From positions 52,700,001-52,764,000 of the forward strand of contig JAGIQG010000013.1 in assembly GCA_024679065.1 (NCBI GenBank): DNA of 64,000 nucleotides, given 5' to 3'. This DNA is from Sphyrna mokarran. Its lineage: Eukaryota. This document shows, piece by piece, positions 17,198-64,000 of the stretch. Numbering within the stretch: the first letter of the stretch is position 1; every line of letters starts with the position of its first letter. A program made the position numbers and the translations under genes. The notes under the pieces are model-generated. The model was not told where the DNA came from. It searched no databases and saw only the letters and a program-made list of their open reading frames with translations.

Positions 17198-17991
17198 TGG
17201 TAGATGTATATTGCCAACAGTGCTTTAAAGAACTGTAGCCACTCTTTTCAGATCAGCCATCTGCAATGTACGGCAGTTCGTGCAGCCGTAAATCATAGAA
17301 TTCTACAGTGCAGTAGGAGCCACTTGGCCCATCAAGACTTCACCACCACAGTTCCACCTTTGTCCTATCCCTGTAACCCCACACACATTCACTCTGTTAG
17401 TGCCTCTGATACTAAGGGGCAATTTAGCACGGCCAATATCTTTGGACTGACAATCTACATCTTCACTATCTATCTTCTTATTCTCAGATTTATCTCCACA
17501 GTTGTGACTGACAGAGTGCAGGTAAGTAAACTTGTGGGTACTGGAGGCAAGGAACTCACAAAAAGGGTGGGGGGAGGTGCAAACTGTTTGGTGAGAGATG
17601 ACAGTCAGTGCAGTAGTTAGTACTACTACCTCATAGTGCCAGGATTCTACTCCGGCCTCAGTGTCATCGTCTATATGGAGTTTGCACTTTCTGCACGTCT
17701 GCATGGATTTCTTCCAGTGCTCCAGTTTCCTCCCACAGTCCAAAGATATGCAGATTAAACTGATTGGCCATGCTAAATTGCCCCTTAGTATCCGGGGCAC
17801 TAACAGAATAAATGCGTGGGGTTACAGGGATAGGGCAAAGGTGGAACTGTGGTCGGTGAAGTCTCGATGAGCCAACTGTACTGCAGAATTCTATGATTTA
17901 CCGCTGCACAAACTACCACATATTGCAGATGGATGTTCTAAAAAGGGTGGCTAAAGTTCTTTAAAGCACTCTTGACAATATGCATCTACCA
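17198..17991. repeat. Inverted duplication, arms about 17198-17437 and 17763-17991
   Basis: Left tggtagatgtatattg..ctttaaagaact..agccac..ccatctgcaat..gtaaatcatagaattct..aatttagcacggccaat is the reverse complement of right attggccatgctaaattg..agaattctatgatttac..attgcagatgg..gtggct..agttctttaaagcact..caatatgcatctacca. Confidence 0.9.
17610..17897 (+). mobile_element. HE1-like SINE
   Basis: gttagtactactacctcatagtgccagg head, conserved core, tail agaattctatga. Confidence 0.8.
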
Positions 17992-40929: not shown

Positions 40930-41660
40930 CAATTTTCTGTTTGCTGATGACTAGCCATCAGTTCAGAATTAAACATGCAATGTCGCATGGACTTTTTCTC
41001 CAATGCACACAATGACTTTGGACTTACAACCAGTATGAAGAAAAGTGAAGTAATGTACCAGCCTGCTTCACTCAGAAAAGCCCTAGCTCCTACCTTAAGT
41101 TTCAGTTCATTACCAGAACCTGTCAGCAGTGGATAAGTTACTTCACTCAACAGCACACTCCCTCAGGCTATTTTTACTGATGGCAAAATACATACAAGAA
41201 TTGTCATAGTGAGTGTAGCCTTTGGTAGACTTCAAACATCAGTCTGTAAATTAAGATTTGATTTTGATTTAATTTATTATTGTCACATGTATTAGTATAC
41301 AGTGAAAAGTATTTTTTCTTGCATACTAATTCTGCAAAGATCCTGTCCACTCCAAGACTTAGACTGTGTACCAGTCTCTTTCCAAGAATGTCAACTATTT
41401 CACTTGAGCTGCCTTCAAAGGTTTCTAAAGCTCAGGTGGTAGGACAAAATACCAGGCATTGGAGGTGCTCACCTGAGCTGGCTTTCACACAATATCGCGA
41501 CAGTCAGAATGTTTGACCGCCACTTACCAAAGCAACTCTTTCATACAGAGCTTCAGTACTCTCATGGCAGTCAAATAAAGATCCACAGGATATGCTGAAG
41601 GTTTCACTTGTGCATTTTGATATCAACTTTGAGTCCTGGGAGAAGCTCACCAAACTCCCC
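40930..41660 (+). mobile_element. Decayed RTE-clade LINE RT fragment
   Basis: FLFADD..., DFGLTTSMKKSEVMYQPA, RIVIVSVAFGRL, DMLKVSLVHFDINFESWEKL: RTE/BovB-type RT motifs. Confidence 0.75.
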
Positions 41661-44260: not shown

Positions 44261-45149
44261 CACATTTCTATGCTTACTATGAATAGGAGACTGGAGAGGG
44301 GAGATTAAATTTAAAAATTTGGGACATTTACCTCCTGTCAACTTTCAGCTCTAACAGGGAGGTTAAGATGCTGGCTACTTACCCTTATTTTCAGTGGTGG
44401 GACAGTCAGTTAAATGGTTTAATTATCCAAGTATAGTACTGTCAAGGACAGGGAGGGACAAGAGTAGATTCAAAAGAGTTTTCTACAGTAGTATGTTTCA
44501 ATGAGAAATGAAGCATTCCTAAACTTGGTTCATGGAAATGAGATGGGCCAAGTGCATCAAGCATCAATAGGACAATATTTATGGGGCAATGATCATTGTA
44601 TCATAAGATTTAGGTTGACTATGGAAAAGGATAAGAATAAAGAATAAGAATAATTAATTCTGGGAAAATCACCTTCAATGTGTAAGAACAGATCTCGCTG
44701 GAATAAATTGGAGTCAAAGATTAGGAGGAAAAACGTAAAGAAGAGATAATTCAGGCACATTCAATGCATGTTCCTTTGGAAGGGGGAGGACAAATAAAAC
44801 CAGGATATCCTGGATGACAAAAGAATTAGAAATTCGGATCAGGAAGAAAAAAGTGTGCTTATGACAGCAATCAGGTAGAAAATGCAACTGTGAAGATAGA
44901 GACTTCAGAGGGAAGATGAAACAGCAATATGTGAAGCATAGAGGGAGTCTGAAAAGAGTCAGGCAGCCAATATAAAAGGGAATCCCAAAAGCTTCTATTG
45001 GCATACAAGTAGTAAAAGGGAGGTAAAAGGAGGAGTAGGACTAGTTGACCAGATATCAAAAAGGGGATTTTCATGCAGGTGGAGGTAACATAGCTGATGT
45101 ATTAATACATTGGATTTGGCCAGAAACTGAACTGGATTACCCATATAAA

Positions 45150-45715
45150 TTCTGTGGTTATGACAGCAACTCTGAGACTAGGAATCCTGAGGTGAACAAT
45201 ACACCTCCTGACTTCCCAAAGCCTGACCACCCACCCAAAAGGCACAAGTCAGGATTGTGATGGAATAGTCTCCAATTTGATTTGATTTATTACTGTCATG
45301 TGTATTAGTGTATAGTGAAAAGTATTTTTTCTTGCACTTTCAAACATCATTCATTCCTTCCACCACTGACACACACTGTGCATCATCTGCAAGATGCACT
45401 GCAGAAACTCACCAATGCTCCTTTGACAGCACATTCCAAATACATGACCACTACATCAAGAAGGCTAAGGGTGGCAAATGGGAACAGCACTATCTGAAAG
45501 TTTCCATGCAAGGCACTCACCAACTTGACTTGGAATTATATCACACTCTTTCATCGCCATTAGGTTAAAATCCTGGAACGCCCTCCCAAACATACTGTAT
45601 TGCACTGCAATGATTCAAAAACGCAGCTCACTACCATCTTTTCAAGGACCATTAAAGTTTGGCAATAAATGCCAATCTAGCCAATGGCGCCCAAATCCCA
45701 TGAATGAATAAAAAA
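45150..45715 (+). mobile_element. L2/CR1-group LINE 3' end inserted in the CR1-like element
   Basis: ggcacaagtcagga..gatggaata, tgcatcatctgcaagatgcactgcag, tail ggcaataaatgcc..atcccatgaatgaataaaaaa, the same tail as the second SINE family. Confidence 0.7.
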
Positions 45716-45745
45716 GATTCCACAGGACTTGATAATTGCAAATGA

Positions 45746-45989
45746 ACTCAGTAAGAATTTAGCAACACCAATTATTAATCCAACCGATTTATTTGATAGT
45801 AAAAAAGTGAGCTTTCAACACTCTTGTGTCTTCCTCAGGCAAGTGCCGTGTACTTGCCTGAGGAAGACACAAGAGTGTTGAAAGCTCGCTTTTTTACTAT
45901 CAAATAAATCGGTTGGATTAATAATTGGTGTTGCTAAATTCTTACTGAGTTCTTACCACCCCAATCCAACGCCGGCATCTTTATATCAC
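45746..45989. mobile_element. Penelope-derived fold-back insertion: 103-bp near-perfect palindrome with 12-bp TSD
   Basis: Arms 45744-45846 and 45850-45952 with two mismatches and a 3-nt loop; flanking direct repeat AATTGCAAATGA at 45734-45745 and 45990-46001 (the last 2 nt of the left copy overlap the arm). Confidence 0.85.
45856..45889 (+). ncRNA. Minimal hammerhead-ribozyme-like motif (mirror copy on minus)
   Basis: GC-CTGAGGA-A-GACAC-AAGA-GTGTT-GAAA-GCT-C-GC. Confidence 0.6.
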
Positions 45990-48337
45990 AATTGCAAATG
46001 ATGCAGCCTTGTTCAAAAAAATAGGCTGTAAAGATAAACACAACAAGTGCAGGCCAGTTTAATTTTGGTGGTTGAGAAACTTCTAGAAAATAATATTTTA
46101 GGACAAAATTAATAGACACGTGAACAAAAGTGTGTTAGTTAAGGAAAGCCAGCAAGGATTTCTTAAGGTAAAATTCTGTTTAACTTAGTTTTCCTTGCAG
46201 AGGTAACAGAGAGGACTGATGAAGGTAACACTGTTGATGTAGTGTACATGGACTACAGTATTTAATACAGTACCATACGGATTTGTGAGCAAAGCTATAG
46301 TTCATGGAATAAAAGAGACAATAGCAACATGGATTCAAAATTGGCTGAGTGACAGGAAAAAGACTATAGTGGTTAATAGACATTTCTCAGGCTGGAGGAA
46401 GGTTTGCAGTGGAAGTCGCTAGGAGCTGGGTCTGTTATTTTTCCTGATATCCATTAATGATATAGATCTTAGTGTACAAATTTGTGAATGATACAAAAGT
46501 TGAAAGCATTGTAAACGAAGAAGAGAATTGTTATAGCCTCAAAAGGACCATAGATAGTTGGTGGAATAGGCAGGTAGGCGGCAGATGATACTCAATGCAG
46601 TGAAGTGGTTAATTTTGGCAGAAAAACATAGACAGATTATTTATAAGCAGTACAACTCTAAAGAGGATATAGGAACAAAGGTATATAATTGCATAACTAA
46701 TTGAAGATGGCAGGACAGTTTGACAGATGGTTAATAAAGCATACAGTATGCTAGGCTTTATTGATTGGTGCACAAGAACAAGGAGGCTTTGCCCCCATCC
46801 TCCTGGCTGGCTTAAGGAATGGAGAGTGCAAAATAGAAGGAATAGGCTCTCGGCTGGGTTCCTGCCTGCTCTGAGCGCAAACAATTTTACACTAGGACAA
46901 GCAAGACCTGTCTTTGTCCCAAATGAGGCCCTTAAATGGCAACTTATCGGCCATTTAAAGGCTGTTGCATCTCAGCCTCAATTTGAGGCTGATGGGAGAA
47001 TTTCCCAGAGAATTTCCCGCACCTTAAGGTCCGATGTTCACTGGACTTTAACCCATAATGTCCCAGCCTCTTCTCTGACATTCCAGTCATCCACTAACCT
47101 CACTCCACAATGTCTTCACTATCTTCCCTGTCCTGGAGACCCCAAAAGACTTTCCTTCCTGACCAGTCCTGGGACTTAGGCTGCAACGTCTTTAGCAGGC
47201 TCCCCTTCTGTCTACTGCAGCTCCTGGTGCTGCATGGACAAGAGAACTGCCGACCACTCTAAATGGCTGGCAGCCCTCCAAGGTGGGACTTCCATCCAAA
47301 TGGCTGTGGTCAGACAGAATCAGTGGCAGGATAGAGATCTCACCATCTAAACAATCCTGGCCATGATCTCTTCCTCCTTTAACTTAGCAACCGAACAAAT
47401 AATAAATATTGCATTTTGGCCATTTTTAATATGTAGGCTTGAGGAAACAGTCTCAGTGATGCATGGGCAATGCTCCTTGGGTACTGCTATTTTGCCCCTT
47501 GGGCAATGTCAGACAGGCAATGCCCCAGGAGGGCACCCCATCCTTAGCCCTGACCACCTGGGGGACCTCCATGGCCTCTCTTCACTCCAGTGGGGTTGAC
47601 CAGCAGTTCTCCATTAGTGGGGAGCTGTGGTAAATCCCTCAGGAGTGAACTATTCTTGACATGGGAGGATGAGGGGGCGTGGGGAGGCTAACAGCCTGGA
47701 GACTTTAGTCCTGAGCCCACTAATGATATTAAAATTATGATCTTAAAATGTAAATCAGCTCTGTTCCAATTTACTGTGTGGAGCTGATGACACTGGAAAT
47801 GCAGACCCCAGAGATGCGCAGATGCATAGCGTTCAACGGGGAGCCTGCTAAATGGTCTTCACTCACGTTCCTGGCTAGCTATATTGCTAGAGCAGCACAA
47901 TGGGCAGGGAGAATTGCCCTCTTATTTTTCTGCTCCATTCAGTTCAGTTGCACATTAAAAGATGTTTTAAGTCATCAACAAGTCCTCATTATTTTAAACC
48001 TTCTTGCCTATCCTGTAAACAGATTGGCTTCTTCCTCCTCCCCATTTCTATTTTAGGCGTTGGGCTCTGTGTCAGCAGCTGGTGCTCATCCTGGGCTTGT
48101 ATTTAGTTAATATATATTTTCTATATGATGCATATTTCACATTAATTAACTCATGATGTTGGGTGTGTTTTTATTTGCAGAAGATACTTGTAAATTAATT
48201 AACTTTTAGACAGTAATTCTGGTCTCATAAATAATCCAAAGGTTGGGGCTCCCTTAATTAGAAATATAATTAATTTCTTAATCTAGTAAATTTTGATTGA
48301 ATGGTCAATTGCACTAATTCAGAATGAGTGCGCATTA

Positions 48338-48395: not shown

Positions 48396-50159
48396 CATAT
48401 GTCTGAAAGTCATAAGCTTGAACATCCTAATTCCTTTTGCTCATGTTTGGAAGCAAAGACACAATACATTCCTTATAATGAACATACATTAGAGAGTGTC
48501 AGCTTTACATTGCATAGAATAAGAAATATCTTCTCTGTTTTGGATAGCATATTGACATTCCTCAGCATACTAAATATCAGGATTCTCAACATCTTTCCAT
48601 CAAATTATTTTTTCTAATGTTTAATAATGTTTTGCACTGAAGAAAAGTTTCACAACAGCCAATTCAGTATAGTTTTCTGAATGAACATTTATGACAAGTT
48701 AGTTAAGATGATCAGGAACAATATGCTGAACAATATCAATGGTGGGTGTTCACTCCCTCATTCAGCTGAGGTAGATCTTGAGATCTGCCTCTTCTACCTG
48801 CCCTATTGTGAGTTCATAGCATTGTTGATACACCACTGGAAACTAAGATGTGTGGGCAGTCATGATTGGCAACCAAATACGCTACATAGATGGGAAAGCA
48901 AGTAAGTTTGAGTGACGTGCTCCCTATTCTGCAGGTGATAGAAACTTGGGCATTATTTTACCATTCCTTTTCTTATTATCTTTGCAGATTCATTAAAACA
49001 GGGCTCTTAGCTTTAATTCTCTCCACCTAGTTTTTCTTTTGTTCCCAGTTTCTCTGACTTGCGTCTACAATATACAAACTTTTAAAATCCAAACTTGGTG
49101 TCATCTAATTATGGGTCTTAGGTTTTTTAATTAAAAGAATGATCTTTTGCTTTACTGTTGTCTTTTGATCTTTGAATGTTATGCAGTTTCCATACACACA
49201 ATACAAATTGAACATTTTAAATTAGAAGTGGGGTGACAGAAACATTTTGTGTGAAGGATAAGATTATTAAGGTCTTTGGGCATAATTGTCAAAAAATAGA
49301 GGTGCAAATGCTGTGAAGACATTTTAATGTTATTCTACAACCATGCCATAGAAATATTAAACAATATCCTGCGATCAACAATCATCTTGATAATGATAAT
49401 TCATAATGTGTGCACTGGTGCCTAAACTATTACCATGGTGACAGAGCCCTCATAATTTGTGTTACCTGCAAATTATCCAGTTAGTGTTCTGAGTGACCAC
49501 CTTGTAGTGGTTTGACTCAAGTAATAGAGAATGCCTGAATTATGTGAGTAGATAGTTAAGTAGTTGATCAACTAAATTTTAAATAAAAGAGACAACAAAA
49601 AAAATTATGACCGTTCAAATCAGCATCTGGCCTACTTTTTTAAAAAAATTAAGGATCAACTGATGTCACCCTAATTAGAATTATTCAACAAGTTATCAAT
49701 TTGTTATCTATCTGGTGTTGACAACATCAGAAGTAGGAACTAGAATAAGCTATTTGGCCCCTTACCTTGCTCCATCATTCAATAAAATCATAGCTGTTAC
49801 TATTATGGCCTAAGCTCCACTTTTCCTGCCTGCCCACGTAACCCTTGGAGATTAAAAATCTGTCTAACTCAGTCTTGACTATATTCCAGTACCGTCTGGG
49901 GTTAGAATTTCAAAGATTAAGGACCCTACGAAAGAAGAAATATCTTCCCATCTCCTTCTTAAATGAGATACACATTTACGAATATTTTCCATCGGTCATC
50001 TGCAGTGTCTGGTCACCTGTTTGCTTAGCTGCTGGTACTTGGCAAGAATACTGAATGCATCCAGTACTGCAGGGTTGCTATTCTGGTTGGCAATCAAGGC
50101 CGGCAGTGAGGAGCTACAGCACATGTGCCGATCTCAGCTACGATAGATCACTGCAGTCG

Positions 50160-50319
50160 TGATGTGTAGAGATGCCGGCGTTGGACAGGGGTAAACACAG
50201 TAAGAAGTCTGACAACACCAGGGTTCGTCTGACGAAGGCCATAGAGCCGAAAGCTTACGCGTTTACTATCAAATAAATCGGTTGGATTTAAAACTGATGT
50301 TGTCAGACTTCTTACTGTG
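50160..50319. mobile_element. Penelope-derived insertion with partial inverted terminus
   Basis: gatgtgtagagatgccggcgttgga head shared with the 45.9 kb and 63.3 kb copies; 25-bp inverted repeat 50196-50220 / 50295-50319. Confidence 0.8.
50226..50259 (+). ncRNA. Minimal hammerhead-ribozyme-like motif
   Basis: CGT-CTGACGA-A-GGC-CATAGA-GCC-GAAA-GCT-T-ACG with perfect 3-bp stems I and II. Confidence 0.65.
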
Positions 50320-52919
50320 ATCGCTGCATGCCCAGTGACCCGCTCAGTGCTACGCTGCTGGCATTCTTGGGGGCACTCTATAGTGCAGAGTGTAGGAGAT
50401 CATTTTGAAAATACCAACAACAATAAAACAATGGAAGTTACCCCCATTTTTACACAAATTTGGCACTTAGAATGTTTTTGGAAGAATTCTGGCTAAAGGA
50501 ATTGATTCTTTTATTTTGATCTAATTGATTTTAGTTGGAAGTAGATGGTCAGATTCAACAATCCCAAGCAATGTTAGTAGGTGTGTTAAAGGTCAGACAG
50601 ACTTTCTGCTCTTAATTACTATACAGATGTTAGAAAGTGAATGTGTGTTGCTGGTCTGTGAAAGAAGGACCACGTTTTACAAGTATTCCCCATTGTCCAA
50701 TCACCTGCTGACACTCACCATCCAGGCTCATATGTAAAATAAATAGCACTTAAGTGAAGCACTAGATGGCCTCTTACATTACAATTCAAAAATACTTCAG
50801 TGGAGTAAAGCACTTTGGAACCTGAGGTTGTGAAAGGTACAATGAAGAGGCACATTTCTTTTTTCTCTCCCAGCTGGCCAATTAAGCCAAAGTACACCAA
50901 ACATTGATGCTTTTAGGAGAATAGCTAAAAAATGGGAAAGAAAAAGTGAAAAAAACTGAATAAATCCAATGGACCAGACAGTGTGTAATACAGAAACATT
51001 AAGTGAAAATGAGTTGAAGCAGGCAATTAAATAGCTTATTTAAGTCCCAATTAAATAAATTTAATTCAGCAATCAACTGAATCTGAACTGTTGATGCCAG
51101 GGTACTGAGGCAAAGAGGGAAATCGGAGATACTCATACAAATCTTGGAAAGGCAGAATGCATTTGTTGCTATACTCAGCTGATGGAAAGGCAAATTGCTC
51201 ATTCATTAACACTGAGATACAGATTACTGCATGGCTGGCAAACACCTTATTGACTCAGGAGTGGCTGATATAAAACAATGATTGGCAACCTGTGCAACTA
51301 AATTAACCATTTCCACGTCCCCCCCCAAAGAATAAACAACTACTCTTACTTAATTTATTCTTCTTCTACCCACGCATGCTTTAATTATTGTCCTTTTTCT
51401 TTTTAATGTCACATATCCAAATAGTAAAATGGCAATTCAGTCTCATTACACTGTTTGTGAAGACATCAACTGTGACAACATGCAGTAGTTTCTTGCATTT
51501 TGTATACTGTTTCAACAATGTTACTTTGTCTTGGACATTAGTATTCAGTTTTTTCTTACAGCAGTCTTCTCATCACATTGTTACATGTTCCTTTTAGTGT
51601 TTTACTTGAACCAGGTATTTCCCTTCATCAACAGTTCAGTGCCTTATCAGCTTTACTACAATCACAGCTTAAGTTTCTGTTCAATATCTACTCTATCATG
51701 TAGCAGATCCAATTATGGTTAACTAGCTGCCATAGTTTATTTATTTTTAGATTTAGTAGGTTGGCTGTGAAGAAATATTTTTCACTGGAGAAAAATTGAA
51801 GCACAACACTTGCATTTATGTAGCATCCACATGATATACAGCATGACACTCTTATTCACAAAGGAAATGAAATAAAGAGATAACAGTGTACGGGCCACAG
51901 CAGCAGATGCTTAACAAAGAGTTGACCACCACAATGCAATGAGACGGACAAGTACCCCTCATAAAAATAAATGATTCCTGTGCATTGAATGTAAATCTCA
52001 ATATATAATAAAACTTTAATAATCAGGGCTTAAGTTAATACTTTAATGCAACTGCATTTCCCTTTCTAACCTATAAGTTATATTACAAGGCAATAATCAG
52101 TAGGTAAATTTTATATCCAGTGCAGTCCTCACGTTTCAAGGAGCCAAAACTTGCTGTAGGTGCAAAACAATCTGGCCATGTGACTTATTAATAGTCATAG
52201 AACATGCAGATCTAATTCAGAACTACTTTCTTCTGAATTGAAAAAGCAGATCTACATCTAATGGGTTCAGTATTTTTTTTTAATCCAATTCAATCAAATC
52301 GAGGCTAATTCATTGTCTCAACAAGTTGAGACATTCCCAGTCGAAGCTGATTGGATTTGGCATTGCACCTCTTCCAAAGCTTGAACTCATTTGCATTTTT
52401 CCAAAAGGCCGAGATGCAGCTTTTAAAAATTACTTCAAATGAAACTAAAATGTAACTTAATGACTTCAATCAAGTACAGCATGTCAATGCAATATTTGAT
52501 CTTGGCCAAAAGGCTAATAGGAGAAAGAATTATGATCTCATCTGGTGGAAATTTACAAGAATTGACTTCAAAAGTTTCCTACTACCAGGATTTGCTTATT
52601 TAGATGACTTTTCCATCCCCGTTGGATGCCATTCCCCAAATCAAAGATCCATGCCAGATGGCTCTCTGCTCCAAATCCCATGTTGGATGGCACCCTGCCT
52701 TGAGGCCATATGAGATGGAACCCTTGGTCTATACCATCCAGAGTTTCAAACAGTCTAACTTCAATGTGCATGTCACCACACAAACAAACAACAGTTATAA
52801 TGTTGCTGTGTGGGTTGAATCCTAAATAAGAACTTTTCCATGGAAGAAGGTTAATAGTTGGGAAGTCATTTTCCTTATTGATAGATGCTGAAATCAAAAC
52901 AGCTATTTCAAGGAATTAA

Positions 52920-53642: not shown

Positions 53643-53669
53643 GAGTATTTATTCCTCAAATAATACTGA

Positions 53670-53697
53670 GCCTTTTGGCAAAGATCAAGTATTGTAT
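53670..53697 (+). pseudogene. U2 snRNA 5' fragment (mirror copy at 52487-52514 minus)
   Basis: GCCTTTTGGCAAAGATCAAGTATTGTAT versus U2 GCCTTTTGGCTAAGATCAAGTGTAGTAT, 25/28 identical. Confidence 0.65.
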
Positions 53698-54719
53698 TGA
53701 CATGCTGTACTTAGCTGAAGTCATTAGATTACATTTTAGTTTCATTTGCAGCAATTTTTAAAAGCTGCATCTCGGTCTTTTGGAAAGATACAAATAAGAT
53801 CAAGCTTTGGAAAAGGTGCAGTGCCTACTCCAATCAGCTTGGATTGGGAATGTCTCAACTTGTTAAGACAATGAATTGGCCTTGATCTGATTGGATTGGA
53901 TTAAAAAAATACTGAGCCCATCAGACGTAGATCTGCTTTTTCAATTCAGAAAAAAACAGTTCCGAATTAGATCTTCATATTCTATGACTATTAATAAGTC
54001 ACTTGGTCAGACTCTTGACTAATTTGTATTTTTATTCTCAAGTCTGTTTTTACAGATTGTCATTTACATAACTTAATTTTCCAAAGTCAGATGTTTTGAT
54101 TCTGTTCAAGTCTTGAGTGAAAAAGTAACTTGCAATCTTGCATTTAAAGAAGTAATGCTGCAATAAAGACTCTTGCTGGCTTGCAAATGCTTTATAGGTT
54201 TCTGAAAACTGAAGAAGAATGCTGCTTCTGATCATGAAACCATCCTAGGAGTTTATTTTCTCAGCATTGATCTTTTGCATAACATCTCACATCTTCATTC
54301 CCTAAATAACAAATTAGTCCATGGCAGATTTACTCAGGCCTCCAAATGTGCAACTTGCCTATCTGTCAGATGTCAATAGACTTGGGATCCAGTGTTCTTT
54401 CCTTATTTGCTCTCCAGTAAAGAAAGGTAAGAACAATGTTTAGTGGCGTAAACATATTTAATGGCAATGTTATCCTAGTTTGCTAGGTTTCCATGGCCTA
54501 ATTTTATCTTTGCAGTGAGCTTCCACAGATCATAAGATGAAAGAGCCCTAGTAAAATATAACTGTTAGATAGAATTTTTATTGATCCTAGATTTTCTTTT
54601 CTAACAGAAAATGCTTGACCTCTACTCGTCTCATGTAACTTGAAATGAAGCAGCCAATGTAAGCAAAGGACATCAACTGCATTGAAAGGCAGCTATTGCA
54701 TTAAAAGTATTAAAAGACT

Positions 54720-61711: not shown

Positions 61712-61884
61712 ATTTGTCGATCAGCACACATCTTGTTCACATTTTCCCATTCCACATCAAGCTGAGTCACTGCATCCTGTATTTGCTTTCCGTCTGTATA
61801 TGAGACATTCCGCAGAACACTAGGTTTCTTGCTGTGAACTGCTTCTACTTGGCCCGAGAGCGTCTCCAAGTTCCTTTTTATTTT
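61712..61884 (-). CDS. DMD: Dystrophin internal coding exon, equivalent to human DMD exon 43 (spectrin-repeat rod domain)
   Basis: Acceptor ctccag|AAAATA, donor CAAAT|GTAAGT, 173 nt (same as human exon 43), phase 0 to 2. Encodes KIKRNLETLSGQVEAVHSKKPSVLRNVSYTDGKQIQDAVTQLDVEWENVNKMCADRQ, matching human dystrophin motifs HSKK, QLD.WE.VNKM..DRQ. Confidence 0.95.
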
Positions 61885-63300
61885 CTGGAGTTCAGAAAAG
61901 ATATGAGATTGATTTTTTTTTCGTTGTGCAAGATAAACAAATAACAGCAAAAACATATCTGCTGACTGATAGGATTTACAAGTATTAGGGTTATTCAAAT
62001 CTTGATTTACATAAAAGATATGAAAAACATCCACAGTATGTTTTTTTAACTTAAGTGAGTTCAGCCCATCAGCAACTCTTTGTAAAGCAGAACCATTCCC
62101 ATATTATGAATAAAACAAGATTATCTTTTGAGAATGCAGTACTAATTCTTTATCACTACCAGAAACTCATCTTTACCCATCCAGAAAAGGGCAGCAGTCC
62201 GATGCAGACTAAAAATTCAGAATCTAAGACAGATGCTCCCAAACCACAGGCCGTGGATGATCATTCATGGTCGCAATCTCTGAGATAGTAATGGGGAGAC
62301 TCTGGAGGGACAGTCCTGAAGTTGGTGTCAAGAGTCCATTACACGTGCAAGACAATTTGTAAGTAAAGGCCAGACCACAGTTTTCAAAACGATTGTGAAC
62401 AAAACTATTGCCCCACTCTACAGCTCGATAGTTCTCCTCCCACTCTCACCCTCTCTGGATTACATCAATTTTTAAGCATCACTATGGAATCACTACGGTT
62501 GAGAAACACTGCTCTAAGAAGTAATGTTATCCAAAACCATCATTATGGCTAAGAATTGGAACAAATGTTGTTTCTTCCACATACAATTTATCTCTATCCC
62601 AAAATAATTCCTAGAAACTACAAAACAAAAACAGTATTCTCATCTGACAACAGAATCTTTCAATGAATCTTCCCTGATACATGTTTTTTCTGAATATGTC
62701 ATGCGTATTTAAAAAGAAATTAAGTCAATTGGGATCATGGATATATTTTCCACTAAATTCCGCAATGAAAGGAACCAATAAATTGTGGATTCAAGTTGCA
62801 GGTTATGTTTGGTTATTTGTAAAAACAATTCAACCAAAAACAGGTGAAAAGCTGAGGGATCTGATAATATACCGCACGGGCTTCAAGATCTCACTGGTTT
62901 AAAATCTCTGGAATGGGAACTAAGGCCAGAATTTTACAGATTGCTTATGGGCAGTCGTGTCCCTTACCCAGAAGAACCCAAAATCACATGAGGAGGACCA
63001 AGCACTCATCCCGGTATCACTGTGCACCCGCATGATATTTTGGTTAGTGGGTATAAGTGAGTCAGTTGTGTGCCTGCCAATTATTAAGCTGCCAGCTTAA
63101 TAAATTAAGTTTTATTGAAAGATTCTGTTGCCAGATGGAGAAAGCTGTTTTTGTTTTATAGTTTGTAGGAATTCATCTGAGGTAGACATAAATTGGAAGT
63201 TCAACTAACTTGAATTTTACGTTGCTGGTGCCATATTTAGGTCAATGCAAAACAACAAATTTGTCATGCAAGAGCACAATGACTGGAGAATGGAGCAAAG

Positions 63301-63534
63301 ATGTGGAGATGCCAGAGTTGGCCTGGGGTAAATAGAGTAAGAAGTCTCACAGCATCAGTTTAAAGTCCAACAGATTTATTTAGTAGCAAAAGCCACTAGC
63401 TTTCGGAGTACTCGTTGTCCTTCATCAGATGAGTGGGACTTCATTCAAATCCCACTCACCTGATGAAGGAGCAATGAGACTCTGAAAGCTAGTGGCTTTT
63501 GCTGCCAAATAAACCTGTTGGACTTTAATCTGGG
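63301..63534. mobile_element. Penelope-derived fold-back insertion with two hammerhead-like motifs and a probable 10-bp TSD
   Basis: Arms about 63356-63438 and 63450-63532; flanks TGGAGCAAAG (63291-63300) and TGAAGCAAAG (63535-63544). Confidence 0.85.
63457..63494 (+). ncRNA. Minimal hammerhead-ribozyme-like motif (mirror copy about 63394-63431 minus)
   Basis: Plus: CAC-CTGATGA-A-GGAG-CAATGAGA-CTCT-GAAA-GCT-A-GTG. Minus: CAT-CTGATGA-A-GGA-CAACGAGTAC-TCC-GAAA-GCT-A-GTG. Confidence 0.65.
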
Positions 63535-64000
63535 TGAAGCAAAGGCAGATTGAGTTGATAAAAGCTACTGAGAGTTAGGTGTGGGGTTAAATTAGAGATT
63601 TTTCTCACTGCTTTCTTGTAACGTCTTTGCACATTTTCTTTAGTCATTCTGAGAATTTGAATCCATTGGCACCTTCAGTGCACTGGTTAAGCCCATTAGC
63701 ACCTCAACAGATCGATACTGTTTATTCAGCAGGGGCACCTCCTCTGAGGAGGAAGAGAGGGGCTGAAAGGAAAGGAGGCCCAGGTGGACATACATTGCCT
63801 CAGGGATGAACATTTGGGAGATGAGGTACAGGCACAGGGGATGTAGGGAAAGCAAGAATGATGAATCCACAGATGACACCACTATCAGCTGTCAGGCAGC
63901 AATCCAATCACCTCAACATGACAGACTTAAGGGTGATTCCAACCTACTACTTTTTTGACAGGTTCGGTCGGGAGACGTGCGCGTGCTTCGATCCACATTG

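Follow-up and report, generated by a model that had tools for sequence, protein, structure and literature searches.

Penelope-like elements (PLEs) leave insertions of a recurrent architecture, in which an inverted 5'-truncated copy stands next to the pLTR and a tail of 30-40 bp is often present at one end only, as set out in the available part of PMC8557442, whose authors treat the origin of the inverted structures of PLEs as an unsolved problem. Inverted pLTRs, target-site duplications (TSDs) of 8-10 bp, a 31-bp tail and palindromes at head-to-head junctions are described in the sections seen of PMC3846280. In vitro, both DNA strands are cleaved and then extended by a PLE protein, reverse transcription starts at two internal sites that delimit a tail of 30-40 bp, and the main substrate is uncleaved RNA (PMC11167929, in excerpt). 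The terminal repeats carry minimal type I hammerheads, which combine CUGANGA, an extra base before helix II, GAAA, a palindromic 15.2/16.2 and UH with a short helix I and an AU-rich 3' flank, and opposite-strand pairs of hammerheads 100-700 bp apart are mentioned for Schistosoma (PMC4209133, in part). To judge from the excerpts of PMC4209133 and PMC11167929, the published minimal hammerheads are weak and dependent on a dimer or on protein. The Penelope promoter and the retrozymes are treated in PMC2377424, PMC6155905, PMC7229834 and bioRxiv 10.64898/2026.07.22.740005.

How does the locus described here compare with these elements? In the window, by which we mean the whole 64-kb stretch of DNA analysed, a fold-back insert (copy A) lies inside an older LINE, and we consider it likely to be the dead-end insertion product of a PLE family of cartilaginous fish: two head-to-head, 5'-truncated repeat ends and a one-sided tail between exact 12-bp TSDs. 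All four of the PLE structural features tested are present, namely a hammerhead in the terminal repeat, an inverted truncated copy, a one-sided tail and a short TSD. Copy A encodes no protein. The searches described below found no RT/GIY-YIG ORF linked to the repeat, so that membership of the PLEs rests on architecture. The parts of the insert and its surroundings are as follows.

45714-46467, plus strand: RT region of a decayed older LINE ORF2, the host of copy A (tblastn)
45734-45745, plus strand: left TSD copy, 12 bp, whose last 2 bases pair with the arm end too
45746-45989: copy A insert proper, 244 nt
45746-45851, minus strand: tail-less arm, a copy of the PLE-like terminal segment, inverted and truncated at its 5' end
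45809-45838, minus strand: minimal type I hammerhead, dystrophin-sense, N17 = 45809
45845-45851: head-to-head junction (apparent loop), from folding and contig loose-end letters
45852-45952, plus strand: tailed arm, a direct, 5'-truncated copy of the tail-less arm's segment
45858-45887, plus strand: minimal type I hammerhead, antisense to dystrophin, N17 = C45887
45953-45989, plus strand: one-sided tail, 37 nt, or 39 counting two microhomology bases
45990-46001, plus strand: right TSD copy, 12 bp, an exact match to the left copy

The strands of the two hammerheads are named after the host gene, of which the window contains one exon, presumably the counterpart of dystrophin exon 43.

61712-61884, minus strand: dystrophin-like exon, 173 bp, with AG/GT borders

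This exon matches dystrophin residues 2037-2096 (PDB 9c3c_D, E 4e-8), and copy A probably lies in the dystrophin intron downstream of it. Because the exon is on the minus strand, the pre-mRNA is the minus strand and does not contain C45887; the sense-strand counterpart of that cut position is 45809. The preliminary description had predicted a cut after C45887: a motif does end there, on the strand antisense to dystrophin.

The inverted arms of copy A (45744-45844 and 45852-45952) are 101 nt each and 99% complementary, their sole mismatch, T45808 versus G45888, being a CpG-type change. RNA folding adds a G·U pair (45845/45851) and a C-G pair round a 3-nt loop, which reproduces the 103-bp palindrome with two imperfect positions reported earlier, with a folding energy of -183.4 kcal/mol (z -30) that was equalled by 0 of 200 shuffles. 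A miRNA reading of copy A was rejected. At its outer end the left arm overlaps the TSD by 2 bp, and this overlap is likely to be priming microhomology. The tail, between the right arm and the right TSD, has no pairing partner, and the unit is therefore not a pure palindrome; the earlier label of a perfect-type palindrome suits the near-perfect arms, but not the 37-nt unpaired tail or the outer 2 bp that belong to the TSD.

One arm and its flank (45849-46190) were compared with the contigs of four of six sequencing runs. Run X1, which supplied 93% of the words sampled and may come from the very sample that was assembled, contains PLE-like family contigs that stop at 45988, i.e. at the tail end of copy A. 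In runs X3 and X6 the depth of related sequence is 260,000-300,000 at 45909-45920 and only 38 and 31 at 45945-45956, and this near absence marks the subfamily of copy A as lineage-restricted. Together with a single difference in 99 arm positions, the restricted distribution supports the view, already taken in the preliminary description, that copy A is a young insertion. Homogenisation of the arms is another possible cause of their near identity.

The target site can be examined independently of the insert because it lies within a decayed reading frame. We take the LINE ORF2 at 45714-46467 to be CR1-like. A LINE fragment in the window has its named relatives in rays, a skate, a sawshark and a chimaera, an indication that the DNA is from a cartilaginous fish. 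In the native sequence the tblastn alignment of ORF2 begins at the right TSD of copy A. When the insert and one TSD copy were deleted in silico and the result was searched by tblastn with 4 of 18 LINE-related proteins, the alignment gained 4-8 residues in frame into the left flank with all four, and every bit score rose (62.0 to 66.6, 63.5 to 67.0, 72.0 to 76.3 and 64.7 to 70.5). Since removal of the insert restores the LINE frame, the 12-bp duplication, proposed from inspection of the sequence, is a genuine target site; the chance of such a TSD is about 3e-4 when 50x50 boundary choices are allowed for. A contig of 434 nt in runs X3 and X6 has 110 unaligned letters at its start and matches the window from 45990 exactly, as would be seen if the site were empty or if the contig represented a further copy of the LINE. 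About 20 nt to the left of the target site the older LINE is adjoined by a different repeat, resembling a LINE 3' end, at about 45360-45710, and the site is thus a nest of three insertions.

Two further fold-back copies, about 75-80% like copy A and belonging to sister subfamilies, were found in the window by blastn and profile search.

50146-50328 (core about 50156-50319): copy B, with the tail at the left and a 10-bp TSD with 1 mismatch
63291-63544 (core about 63300-63534): copy C, of an older sister subfamily, with the tail at the left and a 10-bp TSD with 1 mismatch

An inverted 5'-truncated copy joined head-to-head is seen in all three copies. Copy B has one hammerhead, on the plus strand (N17 50256 = U, helix I 3 bp); the whole hammerhead part is missing from its left, tailed arm, either through deeper truncation or through deletion at the centre of the palindrome. 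Copy C, which lies upstream of the dystrophin-like exon in the direction of transcription, has hammerheads on both strands (N17 63397, minus, and 63491, plus; helix I 4 bp), and its arms of about 83 positions show 74 identities, 7 mismatches and 2 gaps.

The existence of these copies bears on two quite different explanations of copy A. Near-perfect palindromes are a known assembly and library artefact, and a fold-back read could have produced a chimera here, the read check being confined to the right junction of copy A. Such an origin is very improbable, given that a true TSD interrupts an older reading frame, that the arms differ by a CpG-type change, that two older copies of the same design exist, and that a contig of run X1 (possibly the assembly's own sample) crosses the right junction (45962-46137) with 0 differences. 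It is just as hard to credit that copy A is a MITE or a DNA transposon of the fold-back type, bounded by long terminal inverted repeats: although the long, near-perfect inverted arms and the TSD would suit such an element, 37 nt of conserved family sequence stand between the right arm and the TSD, the tail is one-sided in all three copies, which contradicts this reading, the arms contain a covarying hammerhead, and the TSDs vary in length (12, 10 and 10 bp).

When the whole window was scanned on both strands with a hammerhead descriptor, and 100 dinucleotide shuffles served as control, five hammerhead motifs emerged, all within copies A (plus and minus), B (plus) and C (plus and minus). In the shuffles the loose descriptor gave a mean of 0.4 matches and a maximum of 6. 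A strict form that also demands the extra A and the GC palindrome, defined after the sequences had been seen, gave 0. The core CUGANGAH ... GAAAN-N-UH with palindromic 15.2/16.2 is present in all five motifs and invariant apart from N7 and N17. The extra A, which the preliminary description had placed after A9, and GC between GAAA and UH are likewise common to all five, in agreement with the PLE minimal consensus. That description had also given one hammerhead-like motif to each arm of copy A, and the sequence of the motif is as it stated, with the correction that the two lie on opposite strands. An alternative alignment as the D. virilis helix III insertion variant was rejected, GAAA-N-N-UH being the standard minimal form in the published alignment.

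The two motifs of copy A are not equivalent. In the plus-strand motif helix I has 2 bp and helix II 5 bp, with G10.1-U11.1; in the minus-strand motif the first helix I pair is a broken C x A, leaving 0 bp from the core, so that only the plus-strand motif has a helix I of at least 2 bp. This pair was likely lost from the dystrophin-sense strand through CpG decay. A 2-bp helix I is the published minimum (Oikopleura and D. virilis rows), and it and G10.1-U11.1 both occur in PLE-associated rows of Fig. S3 of PMC4209133. The 10.1/11.1 pair is G-U in copy A and G-C in copy B and in the minus motif of copy C. Across the five motifs, three of the five stem pairs tested change on both sides, and 88% of pairing cells are paired, against 16-58% in slid controls; the covariation score was reached by 10 of 500 shuffles and the count of both-sided pairs by 169 of 500. 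Compensatory changes among these five related sequences are suggestive, not strong, and are compatible with the fold having been under selection in the source elements. Rfam returned 0 matches at the gathering score in the whole window, and at E up to 10 the interval 45700-46050 gave 20 matches, all under gathering and to generic hairpin models, with no hammerhead family among them.

Among the described PLEs, the closest likeness is to EN+ elements (Penelope/Poseidon and Neptune; Pen2a of Adineta vaga and PAc of Anolis), which share with copy A the head-to-head inverted 5'-truncated copy, the 30-40 bp one-sided tail, a short TSD, a minimal hammerhead in the terminal repeat and fixed internal 3' ends (PMC3846280, PMC8557442 and PMC11167929, each in part). 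Copy A differs in that its arms are cut to about 100 nt with no ORF left, and in the length of its TSD, 12 bp against 8-10 bp in the published cases seen. The PAc ORF starts inside the hammerhead, whereas the family of copy A shows no ATG before the end of the tail, and there it depends on a weak consensus of loose ends: the letters behind the tail (run X1; 84 contigs, agreement 0.38) form ATG with A45988, and an autonomous ORF may start there. Unlike the opposite-strand pairs 100-700 bp apart in the available part of PMC4209133, the pair in copy A is 20 nt apart and mutually base-paired. Non-LTR retrozymes are also reminiscent of copy A, being short, non-coding, furnished with a type I hammerhead, pLTR-related and found in the one chondrichthyan sampled (PMC7229834; bioRxiv 10.64898/2026.07.22.740005, both in excerpt). 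Retrozymes, however, are head-to-tail tandems in which dimeric ribozymes are possible, and copy A is a head-to-head pair with a TSD and a tail and one sense motif per transcript. No tandem unit was found in 44500-47500 or by the profile search of the window, and the retrozyme reading was rejected.

How might copy A have formed? The PLE protein would have nicked both strands 12 nt apart inside the old LINE, and two cDNAs would have been primed on uncleaved family RNA at the two internal start sites known from PLEs; counted downstream from the hammerhead cleavage position, the inner site lies at 63 nt and the outer one at about 100 nt. Each cDNA would have ended a few bases 5' of the hammerhead and been joined via 2-3 nt of microhomology to give an arm, an inverted arm, a tail and a TSD. 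The hammerhead would then be an inheritance from the source element, where it would have been under selection. The tail-less arm of copy A terminates 63 nt 3' of the cleavage position, and the tail-less arms end 63 nt after N17 in copies A and B and about 43 nt after it in C; the tails end 102 (A) and 97 (C) nt from N17. By analogy with the in vitro reaction, these ends would be as expected from two fixed RT start sites, from which the tail-less arm of C deviates. The loose-end letters before 45852 (run X1; 38 contigs, agreement 0.79) match minus-strand 45845-45851 at 6 of 7 positions, and the simplest account of the loop of copy A is therefore that two copies truncated to unequal lengths meet there, of which the tail-less one reaches further upstream. 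Since the catalytic core survives in every copy, together with a few bases upstream of it, we infer that the template had not cleaved itself.

The main rival for the joining step retains the PLE origin and lets the fold-back arise by self-priming on an antisense template, the model by which PMC3846280, in the sections seen, explains the head-to-head orientation. The junctions of A and C, with short imperfect palindromes and loops of 3 and 5 nt, would suit this model. Against it, the 3' end of the left arm of copy A forms no stable DNA snap-back (z 0.04), and the inner and outer ends, being fixed, correspond to the pair of internal sites at which RT was measured to start in vitro on both strands (PMC11167929, in part). 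Because the second arm is tailed, simple snap-back of one cDNA is insufficient, nor can it yield copy A if the tail-less arm reaches further 5'; an antisense RNA template could. We regard self-priming as a possible but rather unlikely route, and prefer the joining of two cDNAs.

A more fundamental question is whether the fold-back is itself a mobile unit or a by-product of each insertion. In the preliminary description it was a unit mobilised in trans; the PLE insertion product matches better, and the centres differ among the three copies, with a C3-to-C3 distance of 20 nt in A and 32 in C and a single motif in B. The whole palindrome could nevertheless be a non-autonomous fold-back ribozyme SINE copied in trans by PLE protein, and several observations would be in keeping with such an element. 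Its subfamily is young and very abundant: in run X1, 13,525 contigs align to 45849-46190, 3,706 of them at 99% identity or more, and the summed depth over the arm reaches 4.8 million, while the first 60 nt of flank have about 100-800. Single-copy contigs in X1 have a depth of about 15, and the summed arm depth is not a copy number; if overlapping contigs inflate it up to about 30-fold, it suggests at least some 10^4 copies of the PLE-like family in the X1 organism. Short copies dominate, given that X1 depth at the hammerhead end is lower by a factor of about 20 than in the middle of the arm. In addition, pLTR sequence by itself can bring about mobilisation in trans (PMC3846280, in part), and retrozymes are non-autonomous relatives of PLEs.

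Several features speak against a palindromic SINE, which we think improbable. The centres of A, B and C differ, although these copies come from different subfamilies. The loose ends before 45852-45854 in runs X1 and X2 run into non-palindromic family sequence, and different centres with non-palindromic upstream contigs are as expected if each fold-back arises at insertion. Only 210 of the 13,525 X1 contigs pass either end of the compared stretch, and no strand-change joint is listed, a weak point in that contigs may break at hairpins. A 100-bp duplex would be a poor RT template and masks the ribozyme. A palindromic master within the subfamily of copy A is therefore unlikely, and a short, linear, non-autonomous source RNA is possible. 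In its boldest form, with the PLE protein copying fold-back RNA in trans, so that the subfamily would propagate itself and fill the introns of the shark with near-perfect 100-bp duplexes, tens of thousands in number, each silencing its own hammerheads and serving ADAR and Dicer as substrate, the SINE is an equally doubtful proposition.

In the reading that we favour, the fold-back as a by-product of insertion, what would copy A do in the dystrophin intron? With the motifs on opposite strands, each transcript has one motif and its antisense. Considering secondary-structure energies only, a hammerhead-compatible fold costs a single arm 3-4 kcal/mol and the whole of copy A 54 (minus) or 67 (plus) kcal/mol. 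The hammerheads of copy A are thus predicted, as had been proposed, to be locked in a duplex of about 100 bp, whichever the direction of transcription. Taking this cost together with the weak, dimer- or protein-dependent activity of published minimal hammerheads, the motif of copy A is predicted to be silent, and copy A should not cut the dystrophin pre-mRNA. In dystrophin-sense RNA the 45808/45888 difference becomes an A opposite C within a long duplex. An A opposite C in a duplex is a preferred ADAR context, and putative editing of the A at 45808 would restore the first pair of helix I; masking by the hairpin would stay.

Protein searches and DNA pattern scans beyond the window gave no record that links the repeat to an ORF. 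A protein search with a copy B peptide (a frame of 30-40 aa) gave 0 relevant among 3 candidates in collections with little or no shark DNA, and a second gave 4 matches, all to repetitive proteins without RT or GIY-YIG domains. DNA pattern scans of similar scope, again with little or no shark DNA, gave 0 and then, with a looser pattern, 5 matches in metagenomes, 0 in viral sequences and 4 in prokaryote genomes; these nine matches, without hammerhead or tail, are due to chance. No entries for sharks, Callorhinchus or Leucoraja occur in two of the three supplementary files of PMC4209133, and literature searches that covered few subscription journals returned no record of shark fold-back PLE stubs; the family may already be named, for instance in Repbase or Dfam.

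On its own, copy A matters little: it is likely a PLE stub that sits inert in a long intron. Taken as a family, many young, short and resolved insertions would offer a read-out of the two RT start sites, of nick spacing and of junction microhomology. The family could also show why no 5' end in the window lies more than about 20 nt from the hammerhead; run-off at the 5' end of the RNA is one possible cause. In cartilaginous fishes the fold-back copies may, moreover, contribute much intronic double-stranded RNA.

The window also holds three inverted pairs in which the descriptor scan found no hammerhead motif: 17198-17437 and 17763-17991 (85% identity), 52171-52515 and 53669-54011 (89%), and 62584-62671 and 63107-63195 (84%). 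They are possibly DNA transposon ends or inverted SINE pairs, and further putative sources of intronic duplex. A direct repeat of 61 bp, 90% identical, is present at 41263-41323 and 45276-45336, about 4 kb apart.
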